A stretch of DNA of 64,000 bases from an uncultured Thermoplasmata archaeon (GTDB taxonomy: Archaea > Thermoplasmatota > Thermoplasmata > UBA10834): contig CAZXWO010000005.1 of the NCBI GenBank assembly GCA_964644565.1, forward strand, positions 3,320 through 67,319, given 5' to 3'. A program made the position numbers and the translations under genes. The notes beneath the pieces were generated by a model. The model worked only from the letters and a program-made list of their open reading frames with translations. It was not told the DNA's origin and made no database searches. Of the stretch, positions 6,367-28,191 are shown in pieces. Position 1 is the first letter of the stretch. The number at the start of each line of letters is the position of its first letter.

Positions 6367-6367
6367 T

Positions 6368-7489
6368 ATGGCGAAGGACATCCTGACGGTGAAGGACCTG
6401 CAGGTCTGGTTCCCCATGAGGACGGGGTTCATCCAGAGCCTGGTGTCGAAGGAGCAGAGGTGGGTCAAGGCGGTCGACGGCGTGTCGTTCAACATCAGGG
6501 ACCGCGAGATCTTCTGCCTGGTGGGCGAGTCCGGCTGCGGCAAGACGACCACGGGCAAGGCGATACTCAGGCTCGTCGAGCCGACGGGCGGGTCCGTCAA
6601 GTACTACGGCGAGGGCAGGAAGCAGCTCATGGAGGAGATGCTCTCCGAGGCCGTCGCGAAGGGCAAGGTCACGAAGGACAAGGCCGACAAGATGATGGCC
6701 GAGGGCGGGCTGGACGTGCGCGGCCTCCACAAGCAGCGCATGAAGAAGCTCAGGCAGAAGATGCAGATCATCTTCCAGGACCCCTACGAGTCGCTCAACC
6801 CGAAGCAGTCCATATACGACATCATAGCCGAGCCGCTCGTCGTCAACAACCTCGGCAAGAACGAGGCGGAGAGGGAGAAGCGCGTGGTGAAGGCCCTGGA
6901 CGACGCCGGCCTGAGGCCCCCGAAGGACTTCATGTGGAGGTATCCGCACGAGGTCTCCGGAGGCCAGAGGCAGAGGGTCGGCATCGCGGGCGCGCTGGTC
7001 CTGGACCCCGAGTTCCTCGTCGCAGACGAGCCCGTGTCCATGCTCGACGTTTCGATCAGGTCCGAGATCCTCAAGCTCATGCTGGACCTCAGGGACCAGA
7101 AGGGGCTCGCGTTCCTCTTCATCACGCACGACCTTGGCGTCGCGTACGTGTTCAGCGACCGGATAGGCATCATGTACCTGGGCAAGATCGTGGAGCTGGG
7201 GCCGACCGAGGAAGTGGTCAAGCACCCGAGGCACCCGTACACGAAGGCCCTCATATCCGTCGTGCCGACGCCGGACCCCGAGATGAGGCGCGAGAAGATC
7301 ATCCTGAAGGGCGAGAGGCCCGACCCCTCCAACATACCGCCGGGCTGCAGGTTCCACCCGAGGTGCCCGTTCGTGATGGACATATGCCGGAAGGAGCCGC
7401 CGCGGCCCGTGTTCGTCTCCGAGGGGCACTGGGTGTCGTGCCACCTCGAGAGGGGTGACCCGGTCCCGTCAGAGGCGAAGTCGAGTTGA
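6368..7489 (+). CDS. oppF: Oligopeptide/dipeptide ABC transporter ATP-binding protein (OppF/DppF type) with a helical insertion
   Basis: GESGCGKTT, VSGGQRQRVGIA, LVADEPVSMLD, HPYTKAL...CRFHPRC. An extra K/E-rich segment of about 45 aa precedes IIFQDPYESLNP. Confidence 0.9.
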   Translation: MAKDILTVKDLQVWFPMRTGFIQSLVSKEQRWVKAVDGVSFNIRDREIFCLVGESGCGKTTTGKAILRLVEPTGGSVKYYGEGRKQLMEEMLSEAVAKGKVTKDKADKMMAEGGLDVRGLHKQRMKKLRQKMQIIFQDPYESLNPKQSIYDIIAEPLVVNNLGKNEAEREKRVVKALDDAGLRPPKDFMWRYPHEVSGGQRQRVGIAGALVLDPEFLVADEPVSMLDVSIRSEILKLMLDLRDQKGLAFLFITHDLGVAYVFSDRIGIMYLGKIVELGPTEEVVKHPRHPYTKALISVVPTPDPEMRREKIILKGERPDPSNIPPGCRFHPRCPFVMDICRKEPPRPVFVSEGHWVSCHLERGDPVPSEAKSS

Positions 7490-8577
7490 ACGGGCGGCCG
7501 CGGGCGAGGGAGGCCGGCCTGCGCTTCGGCGCGGGCACGACCGGACCCAGGAACTCCATAGCGGACGTTCCAGGGGTGAGGGTCGGACATTGTACCATCA
7601 GCAGGGGCTCCGGCCCCCTCGAGGAGGGGAAGGGGCCCGTCCGCACCGGCGTGACGGCCGTCATCCCCCACGGCGGGAACCTCTACAGGAGGCCTGTCAA
7701 GGGCGCGTACTTCGACCTCAACGGCTGCGGCGGACTCATTGGGGCCCTTCAGGTCCGCGAGTTCGGCGTCATAGACACCCCGATAATGCTGACCAACACC
7801 ATGTCGATGGGGGCCGTGGCGGACGCGACCGTCAGGTACGTGCTGGGCCAGAACCCCGAGGCCGCGCTCTCCGAGGACTCCGTCATACCCATCGTGTCGG
7901 AGTGCGACGACAGCTACCTCAACGACGCGCGCGGCCTTCACGTGCGCGAGGCGCATGTGAAGGAGGCCCTGGAGAGGGCGTCCCAGGACGTGAGGGAGGG
8001 GGCCGTCGGCGCCGGGACCGGCATGTCGTGCTACGACTTCAAAGGGGGCATAGGCACCTCGTCGAGGCTCGTCGAGGCCCCGGGCGGCACATACGCCCTC
8101 GGCGTCCTCGTCCTGTCCAACCACGGGTGCCGCGAGGAGCTCCTGATCGAGGGGGTCCCTGTCGGGAGGATGCTCGACGCCCCCAACCCGAAGCGGGCCG
8201 AGCAGGGCTCGATAGTCATCGTCGTGGGGACGGACGCCCCGGTGGACGCGAGGCAGCTCGGGCGGCTCGCCAGGAGGTCCTGGCTGGGGCTCGGGCTGAC
8301 GGGCTCCTGCTCGCACAACGGCAGCGGGGACATATCGGTCGCCTTCTCCGTCGCCAACGTCCAGGACCGCTCCGTCAAGGGCGTCCTCATGACCGACACC
8401 CTGATGGCTGACAGGGACATGGACGGCCTCTTCAGGGCGACGGTGGACTGCACTTCGGAGGCGATCATAGACTCGCTGTTCAAGGCGGAGACGACCGAGG
8501 GCAGGGACGGGCATGTCGTGCCAGGCCTCCCCATAGACGAGACCCTGGGGATACTCAGGCGCCACGGCCGGCTCTGA
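7486..8577 (+). CDS. Peptidase family S58 (DmpA-type L-aminopeptidase/D-esterase)
   Basis: GPRNSIADVPGVRVGHCTI...RTGVTAV...GAGTGMSCYDFKGGIGTSSR is typical of the DmpA/BapA family. TTG start overlaps the oppF stop (TTGA). Confidence 0.8.
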   Translation: MNGRPRAREAGLRFGAGTTGPRNSIADVPGVRVGHCTISRGSGPLEEGKGPVRTGVTAVIPHGGNLYRRPVKGAYFDLNGCGGLIGALQVREFGVIDTPIMLTNTMSMGAVADATVRYVLGQNPEAALSEDSVIPIVSECDDSYLNDARGLHVREAHVKEALERASQDVREGAVGAGTGMSCYDFKGGIGTSSRLVEAPGGTYALGVLVLSNHGCREELLIEGVPVGRMLDAPNPKRAEQGSIVIVVGTDAPVDARQLGRLARRSWLGLGLTGSCSHNGSGDISVAFSVANVQDRSVKGVLMTDTLMADRDMDGLFRATVDCTSEAIIDSLFKAETTEGRDGHVVPGLPIDETLGILRRHGRL

Positions 8578-8632
8578 CTGAGATAGGTTTTTCATCGGAT
8601 ACGCTCATTGCCGCAGGGCTCAGAGGTGACAG

Positions 8633-9853
8633 ATGGCTAAGAAGAGGTCGCGGTCCGGGGCGAAGGACCCGATGGACAAGGTCCGACGGGCGGTCACCAG
8701 GGTCGAGCTGGAAGGCCTGGTCAAGTCCCTCGTGAAGATACCCAGCCATAGCCAGGTGCCGACCCGGGAGAAGGAGGTCGCCGAGTTCCTGAAGGGTTTC
8801 CTCGTCGACGAGGGGATCGACGCGAGGCTGAGGCAGGTCGAGAAGGACCGCCCCAACGTCATCGCGGTGCTGAAGGGCTCGGGGAAGGGCAAGAGCCTGA
8901 TGCTGAATGGCCACACGGACACGGTCCCGCCCTACGAGATGGACATACCCCCGTTCACCCCCAAGGTGGCCGGCGGGAAGCTGTACGGCAGGGGCTCCCT
9001 CGACATGAAGGGCGGGCTCGCGTCGATGGCCATGACCCTGGTGGCCCTCGACAGGGCCAAGGTGCCCCTGGCCGGTGACCTGTACCTCGCGGCGGTCGTC
9101 GGCGAGGAGGAGAGGAGCGAGGGGACCGAGGACATAGTCCTGAAGGGCCCCAAGGCCGACATGGCGATAGTGGGCGAGCCGACGGACCTCGAGATACAGC
9201 CCTCTCAGAGGGGGCTCGAGTGGTTCGACATACACTTCTACGGCAAGGCGGCGCACGGGGGGCAGGCCCACATGGGCGTCAACGCCATCTCGATGGCGTC
9301 CCGGTTCGTGAACCTGCTCGAGACGGACCTCCTCCCGAGGCTCAGGGCAAAGGGGGGAAGGAAGACCCTGCCCCCCACGCTCAACGTCGGCGTCATCAGG
9401 GGAGGGCAGCAGCCCAGCTCGGTCGCGGACCACTGCCTTGTGAAGATCGACCGCAGGTGGACCCCAGAGGAGGACCTCCAGACGGTCTTCCAGGAGATCT
9501 ACGACCTCTTCGACGTGCTCAAGAAGGCGGACCCGCACTTCAGGGCCGAGCTCAAGAGGGACCACACCAACATGAAGACGATGACCCACGTCCCGAACTA
9601 CGTCCCGGGCGACCACAGGCTGGTGCAGTCCCTGAAGGAGTCCGTCGCCTCGGTGACGGGCGGGCCGGCCAAGGTGACCTCATTCTGGGGCTGGACCGAC
9701 GCGTCGCTCATGACCCACTTCGGGAAGACCCCCACGGTGGTGTTCGGGCCCGGGGGCGCGGGGGCCCACTCGAGGACCGAGTACGTCCTCACCGAGGACC
9801 TCCAGAAGTGCATGCTGGTCTACTCCAGGACCGCGATGGACGTGTGCGGCTGA
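8633..9853 (+). CDS. M20 family metallopeptidase (ArgE/DapE/ACY1 type deacylase)
   Basis: LMLNGHTDTVPP...GRGSLDMKGGLA...VGEEE.SEG..., the M20 metal-binding pattern. Confidence 0.85.
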   Translation: MAKKRSRSGAKDPMDKVRRAVTRVELEGLVKSLVKIPSHSQVPTREKEVAEFLKGFLVDEGIDARLRQVEKDRPNVIAVLKGSGKGKSLMLNGHTDTVPPYEMDIPPFTPKVAGGKLYGRGSLDMKGGLASMAMTLVALDRAKVPLAGDLYLAAVVGEEERSEGTEDIVLKGPKADMAIVGEPTDLEIQPSQRGLEWFDIHFYGKAAHGGQAHMGVNAISMASRFVNLLETDLLPRLRAKGGRKTLPPTLNVGVIRGGQQPSSVADHCLVKIDRRWTPEEDLQTVFQEIYDLFDVLKKADPHFRAELKRDHTNMKTMTHVPNYVPGDHRLVQSLKESVASVTGGPAKVTSFWGWTDASLMTHFGKTPTVVFGPGGAGAHSRTEYVLTEDLQKCMLVYSRTAMDVCG

Positions 9854-9856
9854 GGC

Positions 9857-11467
9857 TCACGAGACGCTGACCCTGTGCCTGAGGACCTGTCCCGCCCTCT
9901 CCTTCGTGTGCTCGCCGTGCTCGATGGTCGGCAGCCCGTTGACGAGGACATGCACTATCCCCTCCGGGTACCTATGCGGGTCCTCGAAGGTCGCGGTGTC
10001 CCTTATCCTCCCGGGGTCGAAGACGACCAGGTCAGCGACCATCCCCTTGGCTATCGTGCCACGGTCCGTGAGGCCGATCCTCTCCGCGGGTAGGGAGGTC
10101 ATCTTGCGCACGGCCTCCTCGAGAGGGAACAGCCCGAACTCGATCGAGTACCTCCTTATGGCCCTCGGGAAGGTCCCATAGGAGCGCGGGTGCGTCGGCG
10201 AGTACCCCGTCGGCCCGTAGGGCGCCTCCGACTCCCCGTCCGAGCCTACGGCCGCCAGCGGGTGACTGATGACCCGCTTGACGTCCTCCTCCGACATCTC
10301 GTGGAAGACGGCCCCGACGCCCAACCCTTCGTCCAGGAGGAGGTCCATGGCGAGGTCTGCGGGGTCGACCCCCAGCTCCCCGGCCACTGACTGGACGGAC
10401 CTGTTCTCGAACCTCTTGTTCCCGTCCTTCCTGAACCCCAGCATGACGATGTTCGCCCACCCGTCCTCCGCGACGGTGTTCTCCCAGTCCGTGCCGGGGT
10501 CGGTCAGCTCCTGCTTGATCCTCTCGCGGAGCTGCGGGTCCCTGAGCCTCGAGAGCTCCTCATCCCTACCCCCCTCCCGCACCCAGGGGGGCAGTATGGT
10601 GTCGAGGGACGTCGACGAGGCGGTGTAGGGGTAGACGTCGAAGGCGACGTCGACCCCGGATGCCCTCGCGGCCTCGATCATGGCCAGGGTCTTCCCCACG
10701 AGGCCCCAGTTCCTCTGCCCGCAGGCCTTGTGGTGCGATATCTGGACCCTGCACCCCGACTCCCTCCCTATCGCTATCGCCTCCGCGACCGCCTCCACGA
10801 GGGTCCGCCCCTCGCCCCTTATGTGGCTCGCGTACAGGCCGCCGAGGGCCGCCGCCGTCGTCGCGAGGGAGACCAGCTCCTCCGTGTGTGCGAAGCACCC
10901 GGGGGCGTAGATCAGTCCGGAGGACACCCCGAAGGCCCCCTCCACCATGGAGTCTGCGAGCATCTTGTTCATGGTGGCGAGCTCGTCGCCGGACGGGGAC
11001 CTGTCGCCGGCCCCCATAACGCCGAGCCTGAGCGTGTCGGCACCGACCAGCGACGCCACGTTCACGGAGGTCCTGACGTCCGCCAGCCTCAGCAAGTACT
11101 CGTCGAAGGTGGTCCACGTGACATCGACCCAGAGGTCCCTGCCGCTCGACTCCAGGGCTCTCCTCGCGAGCCCGAGGACGGGAGCGGCCGAGCCCCCGCA
11201 GTTCCCCACGAGCTCAGTCGTGACCCCCTGCCGGACCTTGCTCTCGGCAAGGGGGCAGCTCAGCAGGTGGAGGTCCGAGTGGGTGTGGATGTCGATGAAA
11301 CCCGGGCAGACAACCAGGCCGTCCGCGTCGATGTTCATCGCGCCCCTCCCCTCGGAGGGCTTGTGCAGCCCGGATATCCTGCTGCCGTCGACCGCGACGT
11401 CCATCTTCCTGCCGGGCGCCCCGGTCCCGTCGATGACCGTGCCGTTCTTGATCAGGATATCGTGCAT
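9857..11467 (-). CDS. N-acyl-D-amino-acid deacylase (D-aminoacylase, amidohydrolase superfamily)
   Basis: MHDILIKNGTVIDGTG...PGFIDIHTHSD...HHKA... is typical of D-aminoacylase. Start moved to 11467 because the track start at 11548 lies upstream of the likely TATA (11524-11533). Confidence 0.85.
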   Translation of the reverse strand: MHDILIKNGTVIDGTGAPGRKMDVAVDGSRISGLHKPSEGRGAMNIDADGLVVCPGFIDIHTHSDLHLLSCPLAESKVRQGVTTELVGNCGGSAAPVLGLARRALESSGRDLWVDVTWTTFDEYLLRLADVRTSVNVASLVGADTLRLGVMGAGDRSPSGDELATMNKMLADSMVEGAFGVSSGLIYAPGCFAHTEELVSLATTAAALGGLYASHIRGEGRTLVEAVAEAIAIGRESGCRVQISHHKACGQRNWGLVGKTLAMIEAARASGVDVAFDVYPYTASSTSLDTILPPWVREGGRDEELSRLRDPQLRERIKQELTDPGTDWENTVAEDGWANIVMLGFRKDGNKRFENRSVQSVAGELGVDPADLAMDLLLDEGLGVGAVFHEMSEEDVKRVISHPLAAVGSDGESEAPYGPTGYSPTHPRSYGTFPRAIRRYSIEFGLFPLEEAVRKMTSLPAERIGLTDRGTIAKGMVADLVVFDPGRIRDTATFEDPHRYPEGIVHVLVNGLPTIEHGEHTKERAGQVLRHRVSVS

Positions 11468-11548
11468 CTCGACACCTCCGGGCGGGGGTCGCCAGGCGCT
11501 CCCCCGGGTATCCTGGACGGGGCTCTTAAACGATTCGCCGTCCGGCAA

Positions 11549-12446: not shown

Positions 12447-13814
12447 TCATCCCGCCTTCATCTTCCTCAGGACGTCCTCCGCCGCTTTGAGGGTCGCGTC
12501 GATGTCCGCGTCAGAGTGCTCCGTGCAGGTGTAGAACGGCTTGTCCGGGTGGAAGTGCATGCCCCTCGCGAGCATGCCGTAGTCGAACTGCTTCCTCAGG
12601 GCCTCGTCGCAGAGGACGGCGTCCCTGTAGTCGCATATCTTGTCGAGGTCGACCTTCTTCTTCCCGTCGAAGAGGATGTTGAAGGTAGTGCCCGGGCCGA
12701 CAGCCCTGGCATCGAAGCCCGACCTCGAGAACAGGTCGTTCAGGCCGTCCTGTAACTTGTCCGTGATCCTCATCAGGTACGGGTACGTCTCCGGCTCCTC
12801 CAGGACCCCGATGGTAGCCCTGCCCGCTGCCAGCACCGTGGGGTGACCGTTGAAGGTCCCACCGTGGAAGACCCTGCTGTCCTTCGGCCGCGTCACCGGG
12901 TTGACGACGTCCATGATCTCCTTCTTCCCGAGGAACGCGCCGCACGGGAAGCCGCCTCCGATGATCTTCCCGAGGCACATGATGTCCGGGGTGACCCCGA
13001 ACATCGTCTGGGCCCCGCCTAGCTTGTCCATGCGGAACCCTGACATGACCTCGTCGAATATCAGGACGATGCCCAGCTCCTCCGTGACCTCCCTGACAGC
13101 CCTGAGGAACTCGATGTCCGCGGGTATGAATCCCCTCTGCACCGGCTCGAGTATGACGGCCGCGAGGTCGTTCTTGTGGGCCTTTATGAGCCTGACGGTG
13201 TCTTCCGCGTCGTTGAACGGGAGCACCTGGACGCTCTGCAGCGTGTACTCGGACGTGCCCAGAGAAGCCGCTACGGCCTGGGGGGCGGCGTCTGGCCCGG
13301 CCGCGTCCGGGGGCGGGGTCAGGCTGACCAGCGCTTCATCGTAGCAGCCGTGGTAGTGCCCCTCGAACTTGGCGATCCTGTTCTTCCTCTTGAAGCCTCT
13401 GGCGACCCTGAGCGCGTGCATCGTGGCCTCAAGGCCGGAGTTGGTGAACCTCACGGTCTCCGCGCACGGGAAGATACGTATCAGCGTCTCCGCCATCCTC
13501 GCCTCCATCTCGTGGGGGGGCCCGAAGATGGGCGTGCCATCGGTCTCCAGCTGCCTCCTGACGGCCTCCGTGACCTTGGGGTGCCCGTGGCCCAGGATCA
13601 TGGGGCCGAAGCACAGCATGTAGTCGATGTACTCGTTGCCGTCGAGGTCCCAGATGTGCGAGCCCTTGGCCTTCTTCGCGTAGACGGGATAGGGGCCGTA
13701 GAACTTCACGTTTCCCGTGACACCGCCGGGGAGGAATCTCTGGGCGTGCTGGAACCACTTCGCGCTCGCTGGCGTCCTCGCCTTGTACTCCGAGATAGGG
13801 TCGTAGGGGGACAT
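12447..13814 (-). CDS. Class III PLP aminotransferase, glutamate-1-semialdehyde-aminomutase-like subgroup
   Basis: LPGGV...DLDGNEYIDYMLCFGPMILGHGHPKV...FTNSGLEATM.ALRVARG...IFDEVMSGFR...GKIIGGG.P follows the HemL-like layout but is 455 aa with an atypical N-terminus. It is the last gene of the thiolase operon. Confidence 0.8.
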   Translation of the reverse strand: MSPYDPISEYKARTPASAKWFQHAQRFLPGGVTGNVKFYGPYPVYAKKAKGSHIWDLDGNEYIDYMLCFGPMILGHGHPKVTEAVRRQLETDGTPIFGPPHEMEARMAETLIRIFPCAETVRFTNSGLEATMHALRVARGFKRKNRIAKFEGHYHGCYDEALVSLTPPPDAAGPDAAPQAVAASLGTSEYTLQSVQVLPFNDAEDTVRLIKAHKNDLAAVILEPVQRGFIPADIEFLRAVREVTEELGIVLIFDEVMSGFRMDKLGGAQTMFGVTPDIMCLGKIIGGGFPCGAFLGKKEIMDVVNPVTRPKDSRVFHGGTFNGHPTVLAAGRATIGVLEEPETYPYLMRITDKLQDGLNDLFSRSGFDARAVGPGTTFNILFDGKKKVDLDKICDYRDAVLCDEALRKQFDYGMLARGMHFHPDKPFYTCTEHSDADIDATLKAAEDVLRKMKAG

Positions 13815-13820
13815 CGTGCA

Positions 13821-14588
13821 TCACCCGAGGTATATCTTCGCCGGGTCGAGGGAGCGGAGCGTCGACAGCTCCTTCTCCGTCGGCGCGGGGGTGGTCTCCA
13901 GCTTGTCGGCGACCTTGAGCTTCCAGGGTGTGTTCTCCTGGACCTTCTCGATGGTCACCCCGGGCTGGAGCGCCACGACGGTCATCTCTCCCGTCGCCTC
14001 GTCGAACTTCATGGTGCACAGGTTGGTGATGACCGCGTACGGCCCCCCTCCCTGCAGCCCGAGCTTCCTCCAGTTCTCCTTCCCGTCGACGAAGCCTGGG
14101 CTGGACTTGAAGTCCACCTTCTCCACGAAGCGCCTCTTCTCGTGGGGCGTTATGACTATGATCTTCTTGACGTTCGACGCGATGTCGCACGCGCCACCGC
14201 TCCCGGGGAGCCTGACCTTCGGGGCCTTGTAGCTCCCTATCACGGTCGAGTTGATGTTCCCGTACTTGTCGATCTGAGCGCCGCCCAGGAAACCGACGTC
14301 TATCCTCGCGCCCTGGAGGTAGTACGCGAACTGCTCGTACATGGAGCACACGCTCTTCGCGCCAGTCACCAGGCACGGGTCCCCTATCGAGAGCGGCATC
14401 CTGCTCGGGTTGGACCCGACCGCGCCGGACTCGTAGACCATGTTCAGGCCCGGGGCCTGGAGCTTCTTCGCCAGGTTCGCCGCCAGGTTAGGTATCCCGA
14501 CGCCCACCAGGACCGTCTCCTTGTCCTTGAGCTCCCTCGCCGCAACTATCACCATCAGCTCGCTCGGTGTAAAGTCCGTCATCGTCAT
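13821..14588 (-). CDS. Family I CoA-transferase, subunit B (glutaconate/3-oxoacid CoA-transferase-like)
   Basis: MTMTDFTPSELMVIVAAREL...GVGIPNL...ESG...GGAQIDKYGNIN...LPGSGGA.D. GGAGG Shine-Dalgarno 8 nt upstream. The track ORF N-terminus (to 14981) overlaps subunit A out of frame. Confidence 0.85.
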   Translation of the reverse strand: MTMTDFTPSELMVIVAARELKDKETVLVGVGIPNLAANLAKKLQAPGLNMVYESGAVGSNPSRMPLSIGDPCLVTGAKSVCSMYEQFAYYLQGARIDVGFLGGAQIDKYGNINSTVIGSYKAPKVRLPGSGGACDIASNVKKIIVITPHEKRRFVEKVDFKSSPGFVDGKENWRKLGLQGGGPYAVITNLCTMKFDEATGEMTVVALQPGVTIEKVQENTPWKLKVADKLETTPAPTEKELSTLRSLDPAKIYLG

Positions 14589-14596
14589 CAGCCTCC

Positions 14597-15514
14597 TCAC
14601 ACGCTCCCGTAGCTCACGGGCGTGCTGTACGCGGTCTTCGGCGCGAGCCTCAGCACTGTGGCCGAGGGCATCTTCTTCATGTACTGGGACCTGTCCTCGA
14701 CCCCGTACACCCACTCGTCCAGGTACTTCATGGTCGTCTCGTGCTCCTTCGTGATGTCGTCCCACTGCATGTAGAACTCGTTGTCCCTGTCGTAGTAGCC
14801 CTGGGTGTAGGACGGGTGCGCGCACCACGGCTCGTGCACGACCGCATGCACTATGAAGTCGGGGATGAGGGTCCTGTTGGGGTCGGACCTTATGACCGAC
14901 TCGTCCACTATCTCCTCGCAGCTTATGATGACCTTCTTGGCAGCGAAGGCGGCATCCTTCTGCTCGCCTATGATCCCCCATATGTGCGAGTTGCCGTTGA
15001 CGTCCGCCCTCTGGACGTGCACGACCGCGACGTCAGGGTTGAGCGGGGGCACCGTCGACACGACCTCGTCGCTGTACGGGCTCTTGACGGTCTTGATCAT
15101 CGGGTTCTCAGGGGGCAGGTCGGAGCCTATGTTTGTCCTCATCGGGAGGAAGGGCATCTTGGTCGCCCCAGCGAACAGCCTGCCAGACAGGCCGAAGTGG
15201 GTGTACTCCTCTATGGTGATCTTGTTCGGGACGCCCTTCTCCAGCGCCCTCCTGAAGCACCTCAGGGAGCCGACGCCTGGGTTCCCGGCGTAGCTGAATA
15301 TGACCTTCTTGGCGCAGCCCGCCGCTATCATCTGGTCGTAGACTATGTCGGGCGTGGCCCTGTACAGCTCCAGGTCCTTCCTCTTCTGCCTGATGATCTC
15401 ATGCCCTGCCGCGAACGGGATCATGTGAGTGAACCCCGCCAGGTAGATGGCGTCCCCGTCCTTCACGAACTTGGACACCGCCTCCTTCATTGTCATCATC
15501 TTGTCCGATGCCAT
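14597..15514 (-). CDS. Family I CoA-transferase, subunit A
   Basis: MTMKEAVSKFVKDGDAIYLAGF...VIFSYAGNPG... resembles GctA/AtoD. Its start lies 2 nt after the DUF35 stop. Confidence 0.85.
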   Translation of the reverse strand: MASDKMMTMKEAVSKFVKDGDAIYLAGFTHMIPFAAGHEIIRQKRKDLELYRATPDIVYDQMIAAGCAKKVIFSYAGNPGVGSLRCFRRALEKGVPNKITIEEYTHFGLSGRLFAGATKMPFLPMRTNIGSDLPPENPMIKTVKSPYSDEVVSTVPPLNPDVAVVHVQRADVNGNSHIWGIIGEQKDAAFAAKKVIISCEEIVDESVIRSDPNRTLIPDFIVHAVVHEPWCAHPSYTQGYYDRDNEFYMQWDDITKEHETTMKYLDEWVYGVEDRSQYMKKMPSATVLRLAPKTAYSTPVSYGSV

Positions 15515-15515
15515 G

Positions 15516-15941
15516 TCACTTCCCCTCCGAATCGGGTGCGAACTTGAACCCGTACCTTATGACACCTTCCTCGGTGTAGATCTTCTTGAGCTCGGCCCTG
15601 ACGGGCATGCCCATCTTGACCTCCTTCGGGCTGACGTCTGTCATCTGGCCTATGACCTTGGGACCTTCCGCGAGCTCGACGATGGCCACGGGGTAGGACC
15701 CTCCGGCCTTCATCTGTTCCGCGAACTCCGGCGGGGCGCCGCCCGCCCCGATCAGGACGAACGTGTGCACCTTGCCCTTGCCGCTGAGCTGGACCTCGTC
15801 GAACTCAGAGGACGCGTTGCAGTACTTGCACACGCCCTTGGGCGGGAAGTTCACGGCGCCGCACTTCTTGCACTTCTGCCCCACCATCTTGTACCTCTGG
15901 GGTATCGTGCGCCAATACATCGGTACCGAAACATGTGCCAT
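15516..15941 (-). CDS. DUF35 OB-fold/zinc-ribbon protein (scaffold of the archaeal thiolase/HMG-CoA synthase complex)
   Basis: GQKCKKCGAVNFPPKGVCKYCN zinc ribbon followed by an OB-fold region. Start set at MAHVSVPMYW (15941), 10 nt after the HMGCS stop. Confidence 0.85.
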   Translation of the reverse strand: MAHVSVPMYWRTIPQRYKMVGQKCKKCGAVNFPPKGVCKYCNASSEFDEVQLSGKGKVHTFVLIGAGGAPPEFAEQMKAGGSYPVAIVELAEGPKVIGQMTDVSPKEVKMGMPVRAELKKIYTEEGVIRYGFKFAPDSEGK

Positions 15942-15951
15942 CCATCTCACC

Positions 15952-16968
15952 TCACTTGAGAGCTCCCTTGAGCTTGACATACTGGATGTAGTCGACGTAC
16001 TCCTTCCTCTCCAGCTGCGCCTTGAAGGTCAGCGCGGGCTTCCTGTCCGAGACGACCTTCAGGCTGATGGCGTCGCTCCCGGCGCCGGAGCCGTACGACA
16101 CGACCATGATCCTGTCGCCGGCTTTTGCCGCGTCCAGCGCCGCGGCGAGGCCCACGGTCGTCGAGGCCGCGCCCAGGTCCCCCAGGTTGACGGATACGAG
16201 CCCTGAGGCCAGCTGCGCATCGTTGAACATCAGTTTCCCAGCCACCGACGCAGGTGTCTTCGCGTCCGGCTGCTGGATGACCACATGGGCATACTCTTCC
16301 GGCTTCGCGCCCAGCTTCTTCATGAGCGCGCTGCAGGCCTTGGTCGTACACGCAGTGAAGGCCGCGGCGAAGAACTTCTTCACGTTAAGGTCCTGGAGCG
16401 ACTCGCCGCCCTGTGGCCTGAACCGCTCTCCGAAGTGCTCCATGACGAAGGACGCGCTCCCCTCGATCTCGGCGATCAAGTCCTCGGAGGAGATGACGAA
16501 CCCCGCGGCGCCGGCGCCCATCGCGTGCTCGAGCGGGTCCCACATGCTCGCCCTCGGTGCGTCAGCGGTGGCGACCACGGCGACGCCGCCCGGGCTTGCC
16601 TTGACGTGCTCGAAGCCGGATATGAGCGCCTCGGTCCCGGCCCTCGTCGAGGTCGTGTGGTCCGATGCGAAGACGGAGCTGGGCATGCCGACGTTGACTA
16701 TGACTGTCCCAGAAAGCATCTTCTCCATGTACGGCGCCGTGGTCGACGCGAGCGCGAACCTGGTGACCTTCGCGGGAGGCAGGGGGACCGACTCCAGTGC
16801 CCTCCTCGAGACCTTCGCGGATGCGGTCAGGACGTCCTCGTCGAAGCCCATGAGGGACTTCTCGCTGACGCCCGGCGCTTGGAAGGACCCCCACGCTTTC
16901 GCGTAGTCCTCCTTCTTTATCCTGAGCCTCGGTACATACGAGCTGTAACCGGATATTCCTGCGGCCAT
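15952..16968 (-). CDS. Hydroxymethylglutaryl-CoA synthase (archaeal type)
   Basis: MAAGISGYSSYVPRLRI...ALASTTAPY...SYGSGAGSDA. Position between thiolase and DUF35. The track ORF 15952..17886 is an out-of-frame upstream extension. Confidence 0.88.
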   Translation of the reverse strand: MAAGISGYSSYVPRLRIKKEDYAKAWGSFQAPGVSEKSLMGFDEDVLTASAKVSRRALESVPLPPAKVTRFALASTTAPYMEKMLSGTVIVNVGMPSSVFASDHTTSTRAGTEALISGFEHVKASPGGVAVVATADAPRASMWDPLEHAMGAGAAGFVISSEDLIAEIEGSASFVMEHFGERFRPQGGESLQDLNVKKFFAAAFTACTTKACSALMKKLGAKPEEYAHVVIQQPDAKTPASVAGKLMFNDAQLASGLVSVNLGDLGAASTTVGLAAALDAAKAGDRIMVVSYGSGAGSDAISLKVVSDRKPALTFKAQLERKEYVDYIQYVKLKGALK

Positions 16969-16973
16969 CCTGT

Positions 16974-18140
16974 TCACCTCACAAGGACCGAGACGGACAC
17001 TGTCCCTCCCGACCCACCTACGTTGTGGACGAGGCCCCTCTCGACCCCCTTGACCTGCCTCGTGGGTTTCTGCGCGGTGCCCCTCAGCTGGTTGAACATC
17101 TCGTAGGCCTGACCGGTCCCGGTGGAGCCGATCGGGTGACCCTTCGACTTGAGCCCACCGCTGACGTTGACGGGCTTGTCCCCGTCGATCTTGGTGTGCC
17201 CCTCCTCCATGAACTGGCCTGCCTTGCCCTTCTCGCAGAAGCCCAGGTCCTCGTAGGCCAGGAGTTCCGCGATGGTGAAGCAGTCGTGAACTTCGGCCAG
17301 CTGGATGTCCTTGGCGGTGAGTCCCGCCATCTTGTAGGCCTGCTGGGAAGCCCTCTTCGTGCCCTCCAGCGTGACCGTGTTGATCCTGTCGTGTATTGCC
17401 AGGTAGTCGCTCGACGTGCCGAAGCCCGCCACATAGACGGGGGTGTCGGTGTAATGCTTCGCGGTCTCCTCGTCGCACACGAGGAGGGCCGACGCGCCGT
17501 CCGTCGTCGAGCAGCAGTCGAACAGGTTGAGCGGATACGCGACGATTGGGGCCTTCATGGCCTGCTCCAGGGTGATCTCCCTCTGGAACTGCGCCTTCGG
17601 GTTCTGTGCGCCGTTCTTGTGGTTCTTGACCGCGACGGACGACAGGTGCTCCCTCTTCGTGCCGAACTCGTGCATGTGCCTGTGGGCGATGAGCGCGTAC
17701 AGGCCCGCGAAGGTCGTGCCCGCGAGCCTCTCGTACTCTGTGTCCCCGGAGACTCCGAGCCAGTACTTCTGCTTCATCCCCGAGACGTCGGTCATCTTCT
17801 CCACGCCGCCGGCGAGGGCCACCTTGTGGGTGCCCGACAGCACGTCCATGACGGCCGCCACCAGCGCGTACCCCCCTGAGGCGCACGCGTTCTCGATCCT
17901 CACGGTGTTGATGTACGGCAGGCCCACATACTCCGCGACCAGCGCGGACATGTTCCCGAGCTGGAACCCCCCGGAGCCGAGGTTGCCTATGTAGGCGGAC
18001 TCGATCTGCCTCGGGTCGAAGTTCTTGTCAACGCTCGAGCTCATGTCTTTGTAGGCCTCGAAGAACAGTTCCTTGATCCCTTTCTCGGGGAACTCGCCGT
18101 ACTTGCTCTGCCCCGCTCCGACTATCGCAACTCTCTTCAT
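16974..18140 (-). CDS. Acetyl-CoA acetyltransferase (archaeal thiolase)
   Basis: [15 protein letters not shown]...ENACASGG...HDCFTIAE...[16 protein letters not shown]...NVGGSG, the thiolase catalytic Cys/His pattern. Confidence 0.9.
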
Positions 18141-18400
18141 ATCAGGTCCCCCGATTCGCTCCGTGCGGGCGGGCGCGCGCGGTCGTCCAGTGTCATCCTC
18201 CCTGCGCCCGCTCTGCGAGTCTGGGATGGCAATTTTCGGAACACGAATCCGGCTATTTAACCGTTGGTGAACAACACCGGCGCCCGGCAGATTTTTTAGA
18301 CAGCGCCTTACGAATCCGTGTCACCCCCCTCCGCGGCTGTTTCCGTTTTCGTATCCTGGAAACGACTCTCGTAACGGTCCTGGGCACCCATTGGGCAGAT

Positions 18401-18408
18401 GATAAATA
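18401..18408 (+). promoter_or_regulatory. TATA box (GATAAATA) for the aminomutase gene
   Basis: AT-rich octamer about 45 nt upstream of the GTG at 18449 and 50 nt upstream of the ATG at 18455. Confidence 0.4.
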
Positions 18409-18448
18409 CGGAGTCTTTCATGCTGTTAATCTAGCATCTTGCGAGGTA

Positions 18449-19726
18449 GTGCGCATGAGGTCATACAAGGACATCCCCCTCTGGAAGGACGTGAAGGACG
18501 AGGAGTGGAACGACTGGAAGTGGCAGCTCAGGAACAGGATCACCACGGTGGAGCAGCTGAAGCAGGTGATCAACCTCACCCCGGAGGAGGAGGCGGGGGT
18601 CAAGGAATCCCTCAAGGTCCTGCGCATGGCGATAACTCCCTACTTCGCATCCCTCATGGACCCCGAAGACCCGCACTGTCCCGTCAGGATGCAGGCGGTC
18701 CCCACCATCAAGGAGACTGACTTCAGCGCGTCCGACATGGACGACCCGCTCTTCGAGGACATAGACTCCCCCGTCCACGGGCTGACGCACAGGTACCCGG
18801 ACAGGGTCCTGTTCCTCATCACGGACCAGTGCGGAATGTACTGCAGGCACTGCACGCGGAGGAGGCTCGCCGGTCAGACGGACGCGGAGAGGGGCACGGA
18901 CGTGATCGACGCAGCGATCGAGTACATCCGGAAGCACGAGGAGATCAGGGACGTGCTCCTGTCCGGAGGCGACTGTCTGATGGTCTCGGACGAGAAGCTG
19001 GAGAGCATAATATCCCGGCTCCAGGCGATCGACCACGTCGACATCGTCAGGATGGGCAGCAGGGCGCCGGTGACGCTCCCTCAGCGGATAACGCCCGCAC
19101 TATGCGAGATGCTCAAGAAGTACCACCCGATCTGGCTCAACACCCACTTCAACCACCCGAAGGAGATAACCCCCGAGTCGAAGAAGGCCGTCACGATGCT
19201 GGCGGACGCAGGCATACCGGTCGGGAACCAGTCCGTGCTCCTGAAGGGCGTGAACGACTGCCCGACCATAATGAAGGCGCTCGTGCAGCAGCTGGTGAAG
19301 ATCCGCGTCAGGCCCTACTACTACTACCAGTGCGACCTGTCGAAGGGCATCGAGCACTTCAGGACCTCCGTCGCGAAGGGCATAGAGATCGCCGAGGCGC
19401 TGCGCGGGCACACCTCGGGGTTCGCGGTGCCGACCTTCATCATCGACGGGCCCGGCGGTGGCGGGAAGATACCTGTCGCCCCGCAGTACCTCATATCCAT
19501 GTCGGACAAGAGGGTCATACTCAGGAACTACGAGGGCGGCACCTTCCAGTACCCCGAACCGAAGGACCGGGTGAGCGTGTGCCCGCCGACCTGCAAGCTA
19601 TGCGAGACGTACGGCAAGATCGAGAGCAAGGAGGGCGTCGCGGGGGTCCTCTCGGGCGAGAAGTTCGCCCTCATACCCGAGGGTTCGGCCAGGGCCGCGA
19701 GGCGGAAGGGCTACGACAAGCACTGA
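18449..19726 (+). CDS. kamA: Lysine 2,3-aminomutase (radical SAM, KamA/AblA family)
   Basis: [11 protein letters not shown] radical-SAM cluster motif, [28 protein letters not shown] at 18449 with an alternative ATG at 18455. Confidence 0.9.
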
Positions 19727-19835: not shown

Positions 19836-21032
19836 ATGGGTAGGAATATTTTCATCAAGGAGCTCATGCAGACACCCGTCGAGCAGCAGACTGTCGAGTT
19901 CGTGGAGAGGAAGGGCATCGGCCACCCCGACAGCATCGCCGACGGCCTGGCCGAGAGCGTCAGCAGGGCGCTGTGCCAGATGTACATAGAGAGGTACGGC
20001 AGAATACTGCACCACAACACCGACGAGACGCAGATCGTCGGAGGGCAGTCCGCCCCGAAGTTCGGGGGAGGCTCCATACTCGAGCCGATTTACATACTCC
20101 TCGTCGGTCGTGCGACCACGAGCGTCAACGGAGAGCGCCTGCCTTACAGGACGACCGCGATGAAGGCCGCCTACTCATACCTCGAGAAGACCTGCAAGAA
20201 CCTCGACGTCGATTGGGACGTCGTCCTGGACTGCATGATCGGACAGGGCAGCGTCGACCTCAGGGGGCTGTACGAGACCCAGCGCCTCCTGGCCAACGAC
20301 ACATCGTTCGGCGTGGGCTTCGCCCCCTTCAGCGAGACCGAGAGGATCACCCTCGAGACAGAGAAGTACATCAACGGCAAGCTGTGGAAGAAGATGCCAG
20401 AGGTGGGCGAGGACGTCAAGGTCATGGCGTACAGGAACGGGAAGGACATCGACCTGACCATCGCATGCGCGATGGTCTCGTCCAAGGTGCCTGACAAGAG
20501 CCACTACAAGAGCGTCATCGAGGAGATGAAGGAGAACGTCGCGGACTTCGCAGGCAAGTACACCAAGAGGAACCTCAAGGTGGACGTGAACACGGCCGAC
20601 GACTACAAGAAGGACATCTACTACCTGACCGTCTCCGGGCTCTCGATGGAGAACGGCGACGACGGCTCCGTCGGCAGGGGCAACAGGGCCAACGGGCTCA
20701 TCACCCCGATGAGGCCGATGAGCATGGAGGCCTCAGCCGGCAAGAACCCGGTCACGCACGTCGGGAAGCTCTACAACATCCTCTCGACCAGGGTCGCGGA
20801 CGAGATACACAAGCTGGGCAGGGGCGACATACTAGAGGTCCACACCAGGATACTGTCCCAGATCGGGAACCCGATAGACGAGCCCCAGGCCGCGAGCGCC
20901 AACATCATATTCGCGCCCAACGTCGACAGGAAGAAGTACGAGCGCGAGGCGGCGGCGCTGTTCGACGAGCAGCTGAAGAACATGCACAAGCTGACCGACG
21001 AGATAGTCTCGGGCAAGGTCAGCGTCTTCTAG
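19836..21032 (+). CDS. metK: S-adenosylmethionine synthetase, archaeal type
   Basis: [17 protein letters not shown]...[13 protein letters not shown]...[11 protein letters not shown] is characteristic of archaeal MAT. Confidence 0.92.
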
Positions 21033-21053: not shown

Positions 21054-24000
21054 TCAGGGGGCCCCGTCCAACTTTCTAAGCTCTTCCTCCCTGGACTTGA
21101 GCACTTTGGCGAGGTCCGTCAGCTCCCCCTGGATCGACTGGAGCCTCGTCCACTCGTCCTCCAGGCGCTGCTCGTCCCTCCTGACCTCGCCCTCGCGGTC
21201 CGCCAGCCTCAGGTAGGCGTCGTCGAGCTCCCTCTTCCTCCGCTCGAGCTCCTCGAAGGTCTTGGCGTCCACCGCCGCTAGCCCGGCCTTGGACCCGTCG
21301 ACCTTCTCCCAGAGGTCCTGGACCTCCGCCCTCTCCTTCTCCATGCGGTCCATCTCGATGACGAGGGTCCTCTCCCGGGTCTCGATGTCGCGCTCCCTGT
21401 CCCTCAGGGCCTCCTCGAGCCCCCTGAGGTCGACCTCCCTGCGCGCGAGGTCGTCGCCCGTCGCGTCCGTCGTCCTGGGCGCGTTGTCCTTGACCGCCTT
21501 GGCGACCCTCTCACGGACCTCCTCCTCGAGCTCCTCGCGCCTCTTCATCAGCTCGTGCCGCCACTTCTCGAGCTCAGCCCTGAGCTGTTCGAGGCCGGCC
21601 TCCCTCTGCTGCACCGCGGACCTCTCCCTGTCCATCTCTATCTGCAGGAGCTCGAACTCCTCCAGGGACCTCTCCAGCTGGTCCGCACGCCTGTGCAGGT
21701 CCTCCTCCTTCGCCGCCAGCGCCGACTTCTCCTTGGCTATGTCGTCGAGGACGCCCTTGTACTCGCTTATCGACTGGTCGACGCCCTGCTCGCGCATGTT
21801 GACGGCCGTCTCCATGCTCGCCAGCCTCGCTCCCGTCGCCCGGAGCTCCTGCTCCTGCCTCGCGAGGTCGTCCTCCCTCGCCTTGAGCGCCGCGTCCCTC
21901 GCGGCCAGGGCGGCCTCCCTCTCCGAGGAGGTGCGGACGGCCGCGTCCACCTGGGCGTTGACCTCCTCCAGCTCCGCGGCCCGCGCCTCGAGGGCCTGCG
22001 CCTCCCTCTCCCTCTGGGCCCGGGCCTCCTCCTGCTGGGACCGGAACTCGGACTCCATGGTCGCGAAGGCCACCTCCCTGGCCTCCAACTCCTTGGACTT
22101 GTCTGTCAGCGCCGCCTCCCTCGACTCCAAGTCAGCGGCCCTCTTCTCCAGGGCGGCCCTCTCGGCCTCCGACGCCGCGGTCGCGGCCGCGTCTGCCGCC
22201 GCGACCTCCTTTTCCCAGGACGCGAGTTCGGCGTCCCGGGTAGCCGCCGCAGCCTCCTTCTCGATGAGGACCTTCATCCTGTCCTCGGCGGCCGCCTCCT
22301 CGTCGGCGAGCCTGCTCGACCTCGTCTCAAGGTCGAACTCCTTGGACTCGAGGGACTTCTCTGTGTCCTTGAGGGCGTCCCGCGCTGCGTCCAGCGACCT
22401 GCCCCTCTCCTCGAGGTCCCTCTTCAGCGTCTCGATGTCAGTACGGGCGGCGCCGAGCTCGGAGTGCGACCTCGCCACATCCATCTCGTGCGACTGCCTG
22501 TCCGCGGCGAACTCGGCCACGCTCCTCTCCAGCTGTGCCTTGTCCTCCATGAACCTCTCGGTGTCGGCCGCGTGCGCCTCCCGCTCCTCGGCGAGCGCCG
22601 CCCTGGCAGCCTCCAGCTCAGACCTGCTCGCCTCGAGGTCCGAGGCGGCCTCCGTCAGCTGCTCCCTCTGGGCGGCCAGCTCTCGCTCGAGCGCCGCCTG
22701 TCTCTCTGAATCCTGAGTTATGATCGTCTCCCTGCGGGAAAGGTCGTCGAACCTCGCCTCCGCCTCGGCGGCCCTCCTCTCCGCCTCCGCCAGCTTATCG
22801 GAGGCCTCCGCCCTCACCGACTCGAGCTCCCTCCTCGCAGACTCCAGCTCCGCCGACGTCTCCCGCAGCTCGGCCTCCTTGGAGTCCAGGGAGGCCGCGC
22901 GCTCCTCCGCCTCCTTCATGAGGCGCTCGACCTCAGCCCTCTGGGCGGCCGTCTCGCGCATCGACTCCTCGAGGGACTTGTGGGTCGTGTCGCGATGCAG
23001 GTCCACGTCGGCGCGGGCCTGCTCTATGCTCGCGCGGTCGGCCTCGAGCTGCGCCCGGGCATCCTCGAGCTCGGCCCTCGCCCCGTCGACCTGCCTCTCG
23101 GACTCCGCGATCCGCTGCTCGCGTTCGCTCACTTCCCGCTCCAGCGCGCCCATCTCGTCCTTGACGACGGCCAGGGCCGCCTCCTTCTCCGCGAGCTGCG
23201 CAGCCCTCCGCTCGAGCTCACCGTGCAGCGCCGCGCGCTCCGCCTGCGCGGCCTCGAGCTCGCCCCTGAGCTGCTTCTCCCGGGCCTCGACCTCCGGCTG
23301 GACCTTGAGCAGGTCGTCCTCCCTGGCCTTCAGGGCGGCCTCCCTGGAGCCCAGGCCCGAGGCGATCTCGTCAAGCTCCGCCTTCCACGAGTCGAGCTCG
23401 GACTGCATGGACGCGAGCTCTTCGGACCTCGAGTCCAGGCGCGCCCTCTCCTCCTGCATGGCCTTGGTGACGGACGCCAGGTCGCTCTTCTCCCTCTCGA
23501 CCCTGGAGAGCTCCGCCTCGCTACGGATCAGCTGTTCCTTCATGAGCCTCTCGCGCTCGTCGAGGGTCGACTTGGTCTGCTGCAGCATCTCGGCCGTCGA
23601 CCTGAGGTTCTCCTCCTTGAGCGCCAGGTCGTCCTCTATGGACTTGAACTCCTCCGCGCGCTTGTTCAGCTCGCGCCGCGACTGGTCGAGCTCCACCCTC
23701 TCCTCGGCCATCCTCAGCTCCTGGGCCGCGACGTCGCTCGACCTCTGGTCGAGGATGGTCTTCATCTCCTCGGCCGCGTAGTACTTCTCCTCGGCCTCCC
23801 TGCGGTCCTCGTCGGCCTTCTCCAGCTTCTCCTTGAGGCCGGCCTCCGCCTCGGACAGGCGCCTCTCGGTGTCGGCGCGCGTGTTCTCGAACTCGATGCG
23901 CTGCTGTTCGAGCGCGTTCCTCTCGAGCGTGAGCTTCTCCTTGGTGTCGTCGACCTCCCGTCTGAAGGCCTCCGTCTCCTCGGCGAGTCTGGCCGTCATC

Positions 24001-27792: not shown

Positions 27793-28191
27793 CTACTTCT
27801 CGTTGAACTTTATGAGAGTGGCGGTCCTGAGGACGCCCGGATAGGACCTGAGCTCGTCGATCCTCCTGTTCAGCTCGTCGAGGCTGTCGGCCCTGAGCCT
27901 CACGGCCACGTCGAACTCGCCCGAGCACTCGAAGACGCTGTCGGAGAGCTGGGTCGCCTTGTCCTTGACGGCGGAGGTCCTCCCGACATGGGTGTCTATG
28001 AGCACTATGCCCTCGAACCCCACGGGGGTGGTCTCTATCGTGAACTTCCTGATGACGCCCTCTCGGACGAGCTTCTCTATCCTCGCCCTCACGGCCCGCT
28101 CGGTGAGGCTGACGTGCCTGGCAATCTCAGTATTCTTCATCCTCGAGTTCCCGCGGAGGAGGTTGAGGATCTTGATGTCCGTGTCGTCCAT
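27793..28191 (-). CDS. Lrp/AsnC family transcriptional regulator
   Basis: MDDTDIKILNLLRGNSRMKNTEIARHVSLTERAVRARIEKLVREGVI is an HTH_AsnC motif, followed by a RAM-like C-terminal domain. Confidence 0.88.
   Translation of the reverse strand: MDDTDIKILNLLRGNSRMKNTEIARHVSLTERAVRARIEKLVREGVIRKFTIETTPVGFEGIVLIDTHVGRTSAVKDKATQLSDSVFECSGEFDVAVRLRADSLDELNRRIDELRSYPGVLRTATLIKFNEK

Follow-up and report, generated by a model that had tools for sequence, protein, structure and literature searches.

The 64,000-nt stretch of Thermoplasmata DNA considered here (C5:3320-67319; hereafter the window) comes from a metagenome-assembled genome of 1.78 Mb (G+C about 65%, estimated completeness 81%), whose nearest public relatives bear the labels Thermoplasmata or Thermoplasmatota. 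It carries a six-gene operon on the minus strand that diverges from a plus-strand gene for lysine 2,3-aminomutase (KamA). Starting from the shared control region, the operon encodes an SCP-x/archaeal-type thiolase of 388 aa that is predicted to be active (16974-18140; Thiolase_N and Thiolase_C domains), a 338-aa protein that resembles 3-hydroxy-3-methylglutaryl-CoA (HMG-CoA) synthase and is predicted to be catalytically dead, its tetrad being replaced (15952-16968), a DUF35 protein that is a putative scaffold (15516-15941; Pfam zf-ChsH2, a zinc ribbon, and OB_ChsH2_C, an OB fold), the GctA-like alpha subunit (305 aa, 14597-15514; CoA_trans, 1POI_A) and the GctB-like beta subunit (255 aa, 13821-14588; CoA_trans, 1POI_B) of a coenzyme A (CoA)-transferase, and a HemL-like class III aminotransferase of 455 aa (12447-13814; Pfam Aminotran_3, 213 bits). 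Read from the aminotransferase towards the thiolase, the spacers between these genes are 6, 8, 1, 10 and 5 nt long, and each contains a Shine-Dalgarno-like GGAGG or GGTGA. The operon-linked kamA paralogue (18449-19726; TIGR03820 AblA) is followed on the same strand by a gene for an archaeal S-adenosylmethionine (SAM) synthetase (19836-21032; Pfam AdoMet_Synthase, 559 bits). The six packed genes and the 308-nt gap to kamA, which an earlier note on the bare sequence had described, were confirmed at the stated coordinates, and Pfam and NCBIfam models confirmed the family of every gene. Overall, the evidence supports, with a probability of about 0.5, the reading that the operon breaks down beta-amino acids and, coupled to its own KamA, degrades L-lysine via beta-lysine. 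The cluster is thus a variant of two known kinds of system, lysine degradation and the thiolase/HMG-CoA synthase/DUF35 complex.

The arrangement of these genes is not due to chance, because 16 further Thermoplasmata loci of this family repeat it in full (SAM synthetase and kamA diverging from the six-gene operon), with protein identities of 61-96%; the SAM synthetase gene adjoins kamA in 15 loci. Moreover, in a sample of 151 genomes spread evenly across the class, an aminotransferase orthologue (at least 67% identity) is always accompanied by a KamA (at least 63% identity), in 16/16 genomes. The association does not come from adjacency alone, because two genomes hold KamA away from the operon genes. 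In particular, G138, which belongs to a different family, has its aminotransferase and KamA on separate contigs, and the L027 genome has the operon plus a 63% identical KamA elsewhere, not adjacent to it. G114, a 98%-complete congener of G138, has no KamA and only a 51% identical aminotransferase homologue of uncertain orthology. The linkage of the transaminase, CoA-transferase and thiolase module to KamA that the earlier note had drawn from a single locus is thereby borne out by conserved adjacency, by genome-wide co-occurrence and by the conserved control region described below. Separately, the single-contig genome CP070748.1 (L003/L022) lacks the thiolase and the adjacent kamA and has an HMG-CoA-synthase-like gene called at 292 aa, with DUF35, both CoA-transferase genes and the aminotransferase intact; these losses may reflect a recent deletion.

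The 308-nt region between the thiolase start and kamA (18141-18448) contains several elements that are conserved in an alignment of 17 species. These are a TATA box for the operon (18253-18261), a TATA box for kamA (18401-18408), three TACGAA half-sites between the two TATA boxes, two of them direct and one inverted (18368-18375, 18346-18354 and 18308-18315), and a CCAGAC box (18219-18224) at the start of the operon's leader of about 90 nt; the remainder of the region varies. Together, the conserved elements point to a shared regulator and provide a candidate operator. A riboswitch was considered for this region and rejected, as no Rfam family matched it. About 8 kb from the operon, an open reading frame (ORF; 27793-28191) encodes an N-terminus that looks Lrp/AsnC-like by eye only, making its product a possible regulator candidate.

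The window KamA scores 611 bits against the TIGR03820 AblA model (cut-off of 525), and its match to 2A5H, from Clostridium, reaches 594 bits. It retains the CxxxCxxC motif (CGMYCRHC) together with Asp293 and Asp330, the residues that bind the epsilon-amino group of lysine; because both aspartates are kept, the product is expected to be beta-lysine and not beta-glutamate or beta-arginine. A beta-glutamate route, in which a glutamate 2,3-aminomutase would lead to 3-oxoglutaryl-CoA, was suggested by the C5-dicarboxylate type of the CoA-transferase; it was rejected because KamA keeps the aspartate pair and reaches the cut-off of the AblA model but not that of the model for glutamate aminomutase. 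The family contains two KamA paralogues, where the operon-adjacent copies are 78-83% identical to the window KamA across species and the copies elsewhere are 66-70% identical. In the genome studied here, the second paralogue (C4:8722-10023) is 69% identical, is of the type found family-wide and has no acetyltransferase gene beside it; a role in osmolyte synthesis or protein modification is possible.

In the HMG-CoA-synthase-like subunit, the catalytic Glu, Cys, His and Asn have given way to Thr, Thr, Gln and Asp, respectively. This E-C-H-N set has been defined as the tetrad of HMG-CoA synthase and is absent from PhlA and MucA, whose complexes make no HMG-CoA (PMC12960953). The Glu, Cys and Asn are replaced in 6/6 aligned orthologues, with the His kept in one. 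Further, an exhaustive search found the tetrad missing in about 130 of the 150 nearest proteins, taken as representatives of 50%-identity clusters, and among these representatives a canonical E-C-H-N protein is first seen at about rank 62. In a FastTree phylogeny, the subunit falls inside clades of tetrad-less proteins only, with local support of 96-98%. Among solved structures, PhlA matches the subunit best (1.4e-44), and the true HMG-CoA synthase 6ESQ_I matches it about equally well (4e-40). Because its tetrad is replaced, the protein is, on residue evidence, incapable of making HMG-CoA, and it would serve only as a scaffold in a thiolase complex. It passes the NCBIfam equivalog NF003274 'HMG-CoA synthase' (270 against a cut-off of 244), and its orthologues are named HMG-CoA synthase in NCBI and JGI records; on these proteins the name is a systematic mis-annotation, which probably affects a very large clade.

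The thiolase, in turn, has its CxS nucleophile (ENACASGG) and its HDCF and GHP motifs all intact, which is why it is predicted to be active. Its best solved relative is the acetoacetyl-CoA thiolase 6ESQ_A (2e-91, 310 bits), as compared with 3e-34 and 122 bits for PhlC, and the DUF35 protein is similarly nearest to 6ESQ_E (3e-28; PhlB, 9e-10). The window trio is thus like the archaeal thiolase/HMG-CoA synthase/DUF35 complex (6ESQ) in having three adjacent genes with the same folds and unlike it in the loss of E-C-H-N, in its gene order (thiolase, HMG-CoA-synthase-like, DUF35) and in the presence of a separate trio with an intact HMG-CoA synthase in the same genome. The predicted assembly is an active thiolase, a dead HMG-CoA-synthase-like subunit and DUF35, held in a complex. 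Such a trio could work only as a thiolase, because one enzyme is dead and the other intact, and thiolysis would be its favoured direction, because nothing pulls condensation. A 45% identical trio, likewise with a dead HMG-CoA-synthase-like subunit, occurs in L125 in the order hydroxyacyl-CoA dehydrogenase, thiolase, dead HMG-CoA-synthase-like protein, DUF35 and enoyl-CoA hydratase; in such a context the trio would act simply as a thiolase, in chemistry resembling beta-oxidation.

Whether the genome has a second trio had been posed as a check, and a tblastn search of the whole genome with the window proteins located one on contig C2, in the usual archaeal gene order (HMG-CoA synthase, 22984-24018; thiolase, 24039-25199; DUF35, 25213-25611). 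The C2 HMG-CoA synthase has canonical GSES, FACKAGT, HQPNG and GNTYS motifs with E-C-H-N intact, and a trio of this type with an intact HMG-CoA synthase was found in 31/31 relatives. Of the two trio thiolases, the one on C2 is more closely orthologous to that of 6ESQ (381 bits), yet it has Gly in place of the nucleophilic Cys85, HDNF in place of HDCF and GDP in place of GHx; the nucleophilic Cys is missing from the C2-type thiolase in 27/29 relatives across the class (loci L094-L123). By their residues, the two complexes in this one genome appear complementary, where only the HMG-CoA synthase is alive in the C2 trio and only the thiolase is alive in the window trio. A mevalonate complex with a pseudo-thiolase seems undescribed so far. 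The acetoacetyl-CoA for mevalonate synthesis presumably comes from a classical AtoB/PhaA-type thiolase (C6:58361-59539) that has all catalytic residues (Cys, His, Cys) and was found in 5/5 genomes tested; its presence rules out the window thiolase as the sole source. Two claims of the earlier note do not survive these results. The label 'mevalonate-entry operon' was wrong, and a direct feed of beta-amino acid carbon into an HMG-CoA synthase complex at this operon is excluded, since the window subunit is dead and the intact HMG-CoA synthase is encoded on C2.

The aminotransferase scores 367 against the TIGR00713 hemL model (cut-off of 527), no protein of the genome passes this cut-off, and ALAD/HemB is missing from 12/12 genomes of the genus. 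A genuine HemL, which the earlier note had named as the outcome that would undo its proposal, is ruled out by the low score in a genus without HemB. The best solved relatives are glutamate-1-semialdehyde aminomutases and 6K8H (about 1e-85), and the beta-transaminases 2YKU and 4AO9 (beta-phenylalanine, Mesorhizobium) match more weakly (about 1e-54); the LGKIIGGG motif with the pyridoxal phosphate lysine and the DEVMSGFR motif are present. The enzyme is proposed to be a beta-transaminase for beta-lysine or beta-lysyl-CoA. A precedent is Kat, a 3-aminobutyryl-CoA aminotransferase that was found as a mis-annotated HemL beside a thiolase and that accepts thioesters only (PMC3149608). Like Kat, the window enzyme is a HemL-like class III aminotransferase encoded near a thiolase. 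In L124 and L136, its gene directly follows the trio with no CoA-transferase gene between, and this order ties the product of the aminotransferase to the thiolase. A second HemL-like aminotransferase (41% identical) lies elsewhere in the genome (C39:1681-4540), beside an ORF whose N-terminus is MttB-like, an assignment unconfirmed by family search.

The best solved relatives of the CoA-transferase are 1POI_A for the alpha subunit (2.5e-46) and 1POI_B for the beta subunit (3e-48), whereas models of 3-oxoacid and acetate CoA-transferases score just 23-64 bits on the window subunits, and 23-28 bits on the alpha subunit. Alignment with 1POI shows that the beta subunit retains the catalytic Glu, which lies in its ESG motif. 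By sequence, the enzyme is of glutaconate type (GctAB-like), not of AtoDA/ScoAB type; the CoA-transferase pair described earlier is therefore real, and its assignment to the acetoacetate/3-oxoacid type is not upheld. GctAB of Acidaminococcus fermentans (1POI) likewise has two subunits of matching size with the catalytic Glu kept, and differs in that the window genes are partnered by a transaminase and a thiolase; these partners make glutaconate an improbable substrate here. Moreover, the 2-hydroxyglutaryl-CoA dehydratase HGD-D (PF06050) had no match in 13 related genomes, in a search whose positive controls did score, and a hydroxyglutarate pathway was ruled out on this basis. Of the case that the earlier note had named as refuting, a glutaconate-specific enzyme in an unrelated pathway, the first half holds, as the enzyme is GctAB-like, and the second does not, as no such pathway was found. 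Orthologues of the CoA-transferase also occur in Anaerolineales (loci L031-L085), including Anaerolinea thermolimosa (NZ_DF967965.1), with identities of 62-65% for alpha and 54-57% for beta, which suggests a transfer of the GctAB-like enzyme between domains, involving Anaerolineales and Thermoplasmata. There, the genes usually follow an aldehyde dehydrogenase gene, often have an alpha/beta-hydrolase gene between them and have a HAD hydrolase nearby; these neighbours gave no clue to the substrate.

Searches for the enzymes of known lysine pathways returned little. KamD (Lys-AminoMut_A, PF09043) had 0 matches in 21 genomes in a search with no positive control, and Kdd and Kal were not searched for; BKACE/Kce (PF05853) gave only a chance hit of 14.7 bits in the window genome; and AblB acetyltransferase was not found in that genome either, with a best hit of 14.7 bits. 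The classical pathway is incomplete here, as the earlier note had suspected, and classical lysine fermentation cannot run, because KamD and Kce were not found. Further, AbfD, 3-hydroxyacyl-CoA dehydrogenase and crotonase were each sought by tblastn with a single heterologous query and not found in the window genome, and a route through GABA (4-aminobutyrate) and crotonyl-CoA that would use these three enzymes was rejected for lack of homologues. Because KamD, Kce, AblB, HGD-D, AbfD, the dehydrogenase and crotonase were not found, the genes of the cluster would have to close the pathway by themselves. In addition, because KamD and Kce were not found, the carbon chain would be cut between C2 and C3 of a beta-lysine derivative, giving a C4 amine. 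The failure to find the classical enzymes is a direct observation, as are the genes present, the retention or loss of their catalytic residues, the conservation and the co-occurrence.

The proposed route would begin with the conversion of L-lysine into beta-lysine (3,6-diaminohexanoate) by KamA. In a second step, the GctAB-like CoA-transferase and the HemL-like aminotransferase would together yield 3-oxo-6-aminohexanoyl-CoA, either by CoA transfer followed by transamination of the thioester, as in Kat, or by transamination of the free acid first. The thioester-first order is chemically preferable, because a free 3-oxo acid would decarboxylate and cyclise, and it also matches Kat. In a third step, the thiolase would cleave 3-oxo-6-aminohexanoyl-CoA into acetyl-CoA and 4-aminobutyryl-CoA, and in a fourth the latter would serve as CoA donor for a further molecule of substrate and be set free as GABA. 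In sum, the reaction would be lysine + 2-oxoglutarate + CoA to GABA + acetyl-CoA + glutamate, bypassing KamDE, Kdd and Kce, so that the route would need no B12-dependent aminomutase, no dehydrogenase and no Kce. The substrates, the sequence of the second and third steps and the direction in which the route runs are all inferred. Just this scheme uses all genes of the cluster and nothing else and closes the CoA cycle. The gene content supports the idea, put forward in the earlier note, of a KamA-linked path in which a beta-amino acid is carried via a CoA ester into thiolysis. The proposed route is also favoured by a gene on C33 for a near-GABA-transaminase, which scores 488 with TIGR00700 (cut-off of 507).

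Two kinds of known system resemble this scheme in part. AtoDA/AtoB and PcaIJ/PcaF likewise transfer CoA to a 3-oxoacid, cleave it by thiolysis and recycle the acyl-CoA product as donor; they differ in that the window CoA-transferase belongs to another subfamily, that its thiolase is of SCP-x/archaeal type in a putative three-protein complex, and that a beta-transaminase and an aminomutase are added upstream. The second is the aerobic route of Pseudomonas B4, in which an N6-acetyl-beta-lysine transaminase (EC 2.6.1.65) forms 3-oxo-6-acetamidohexanoate, from which 4-acetamidobutyryl-CoA is derived. As in the route proposed here, a beta-lysine derivative is transaminated and the resulting 3-oxo acid loses a C2 unit to leave a derivative of 4-aminobutyrate, but N6 is acetylated first and the cleavage enzyme is acetyl-CoA-dependent, where a CoA-transferase and a thiolase are proposed for the window. 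We know of no genes assigned to the Pseudomonas B4 route, and a search of the literature found no account of the present cluster or of the Pseudomonas beta-lysine intermediates.

Several points weigh against the degradation of lysine by this operon. First, 3-oxo-6-aminohexanoate and its CoA ester should cyclise readily; the Pseudomonas route shields the amino group at C6 with an acetyl group, and the search for an AblB-type acetyltransferase found none here. Deacylases encoded near the operon may leave room for an acetylated variant, although no acetyltransferase was identified. Second, C5 dicarboxylates are the preferred substrates of the solved enzyme nearest to the CoA-transferase, and the proposed route would present it with a cationic amino acid; the thiolase, by sequence most like an acetoacetyl-CoA thiolase, would have to accept a 4-aminobutyryl unit. 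Third, the Anaerolineales orthologues of the CoA-transferase occur without KamA, the thiolase trio or a close aminotransferase. Finally, the co-occurrence with KamA lies mostly in one family and so represents few independent events, and both a sister lineage and the Thermoproteota locus L030 carry the module without an adjacent KamA.

In an alternative reading, the operon is a general module for beta-amino acids and beta-keto acids fed by imported peptides, and the position of KamA is historical, not functional. Opp would import peptides, S58 and amidohydrolase enzymes would free compounds such as 3-aminobutyrate, and the operon would convert these to acetyl-CoA. In the window, the operon has as conserved neighbours genes labelled by Pfam or NCBIfam as OppD/OppF ATPases (5395-7489), an S58 DmpA/BapA-type aminopeptidase (7486-8577), an M20 ArgE/DapE-family deacylase (8633-9853) and, on the minus strand, an Amidohydro_3 enzyme (9857-11548); these neighbours (5395-11548) may feed the operon. 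DapF is also encoded near the operon. In the sister lineage (L027, L134, L136 and L124), the aminotransferase gene comes after those for thiolase, HMG-CoA-synthase-like protein and DUF35, and CoA-transferase genes are part of the operon in only two of the four loci. Its flanks encode an S58 aminopeptidase, a complete Opp transporter, Amidohydro_3, a methyltransferase and a second HemL-like aminotransferase; S58, OppD/F and Amidohydro_3 flank the operon in L027, L134 and L136 too, in an order that differs from the window family. The constant core thus looks to be the aminotransferase and the thiolase complex amid genes for peptide uptake and hydrolysis, with KamA a later addition in the window family.

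The peptide-fed alternative accordingly draws on the shared S58, OppD/F and Amidohydro_3 flanks of both lineages, on a sister lineage with a full Opp system and no adjacent KamA, and on a thiolase nearest to acetoacetyl-CoA thiolase, which would suit the conversion of 3-aminobutyrate into acetoacetyl-CoA. It is made doubtful by a KamA paralogue dedicated to the operon and adjacent to it, the two sharing a conserved control region, by the co-occurrence of KamA without adjacency in G138 and in the L027 genome, and by the lack of an encoded source of 3-aminobutyrate, as KamD and Kce were not found. Overall, it is unlikely, though it retains appreciable weight. It is compatible with degradation via beta-lysine, as KamA may have joined an older and broader module. 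As a separate observation, L030 (4464-16490) has the thiolase, dead HMG-CoA-synthase-like protein, DUF35 and CoA-transferase genes among genes for MttB, a corrinoid protein, MtrH, a flavin adenine dinucleotide (FAD) oxidase and an AbfD-like protein, a context that hints at a link to methylated-amine catabolism. Evidently, the module has been reused for other nitrogenous acids.

Lysine fermentation in its classical form, or in the Kat variant of 'Candidatus Cloacamonas acidaminovorans' (PMC3149608), would give the aminotransferase a true 3-aminobutyryl-CoA activity, the thiolase a role in acetoacetyl-CoA thiolysis and the CoA-transferase a role in acetoacetate activation. Four enzyme types of this pathway are present (KamA, HemL-like aminotransferase, CoA-transferase and thiolase), the Kat pathway likewise has KamA as its first enzyme and employs a HemL-like beta-transaminase for a CoA ester, along with a CoA-transferase and a thiolase, and Kat itself is 'HemL-like' with its gene beside a thiolase. 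However, the absence of a KamD match in the 21 genomes (again with no positive control), the absence of a BKACE/Kce match in the window genome and a CoA-transferase of GctAB type, not AtoDA type, make this highly unlikely. The products differ as well, since fermentation gives 3-aminobutyryl-CoA and acetoacetate and the route proposed for the window gives a C4 amine.

Operation in the biosynthetic direction, or as a C-acyltransferase like PhlACB of Pseudomonas (5M3K) or MucABC of Streptococcus (9SKH; PMC12960953), would make the cluster a source of a beta-amino-acid osmolyte or a secondary metabolite, for example. These systems have the same trio with an inactive HMG-CoA-synthase-like subunit, the His-to-Gln and Asn-to-Asp replacements in the window subunit are common to PhlA/MucA-type changes (PMC12960953), and beta-lysine derivatives are osmolytes in other archaea. 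However, the thiolase-like subunits of PhlACB and MucABC lack HDxF and acylate aromatic or tetramic-acid acceptors. The window trio is not expected to be a Friedel-Crafts acylase, because its thiolase keeps HDCF, the HDxF motif that PhlC/MucB-type acylases lack; the thiolase also has 310 bits to 6ESQ_A against 122 to PhlC. There is no acetyltransferase, nonribosomal peptide synthetase or polyketide synthase gene nearby, and the surroundings, with genes for peptide uptake and hydrolysis, are those of catabolism and not of a natural-product cluster, so that this alternative is improbable. Finally, the view that the trio is the entry to mevalonate synthesis, with the three appended genes delivering acetoacetyl-CoA into HMG-CoA synthesis, can point to a gene order resembling the archaeal complex, to the NF003274 match and to thiolase and DUF35 proteins nearest to 6ESQ subunits, but it is refuted at the sequence level, barring HMG-CoA synthesis without a cysteine nucleophile, by a subunit that has no tetrad and lies among dead homologues, by the intact HMG-CoA synthase of the C2 trio in 31/31 relatives and by a classical C6 thiolase that can supply acetoacetyl-CoA.

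These results bear on enzyme annotation, on the evolution of multienzyme complexes and on lysine metabolism in archaea. The widely used archaeal "HMG-CoA synthase" label is wrong for a large clade, which touches metabolic reconstructions of lipid synthesis, and two complementary pseudoenzyme complexes in one genome provide a natural experiment on why the architecture persists after the loss of an active site. The cluster could also supply acyl-CoA beta-transaminases for use in biocatalysis. A beta-lysine beta-transaminase is known biochemically, to our knowledge with no genes assigned to it; if degradation via beta-lysine is correct, the cluster would provide candidate genes for this activity and would represent a third, shorter route of lysine and beta-lysine breakdown, the first to be assigned to archaea. 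More tentatively, and with somewhat less confidence than is given to the function of the operon itself, uncultured soil and sediment Thermoplasmata may have an undescribed route of lysine degradation that is built on a new functional class of complex, with an active thiolase and a pseudoenzyme scaffold; together with its mirror image for mevalonate synthesis, this complex would represent the reciprocal degeneration of an ancestral two-enzyme machine.

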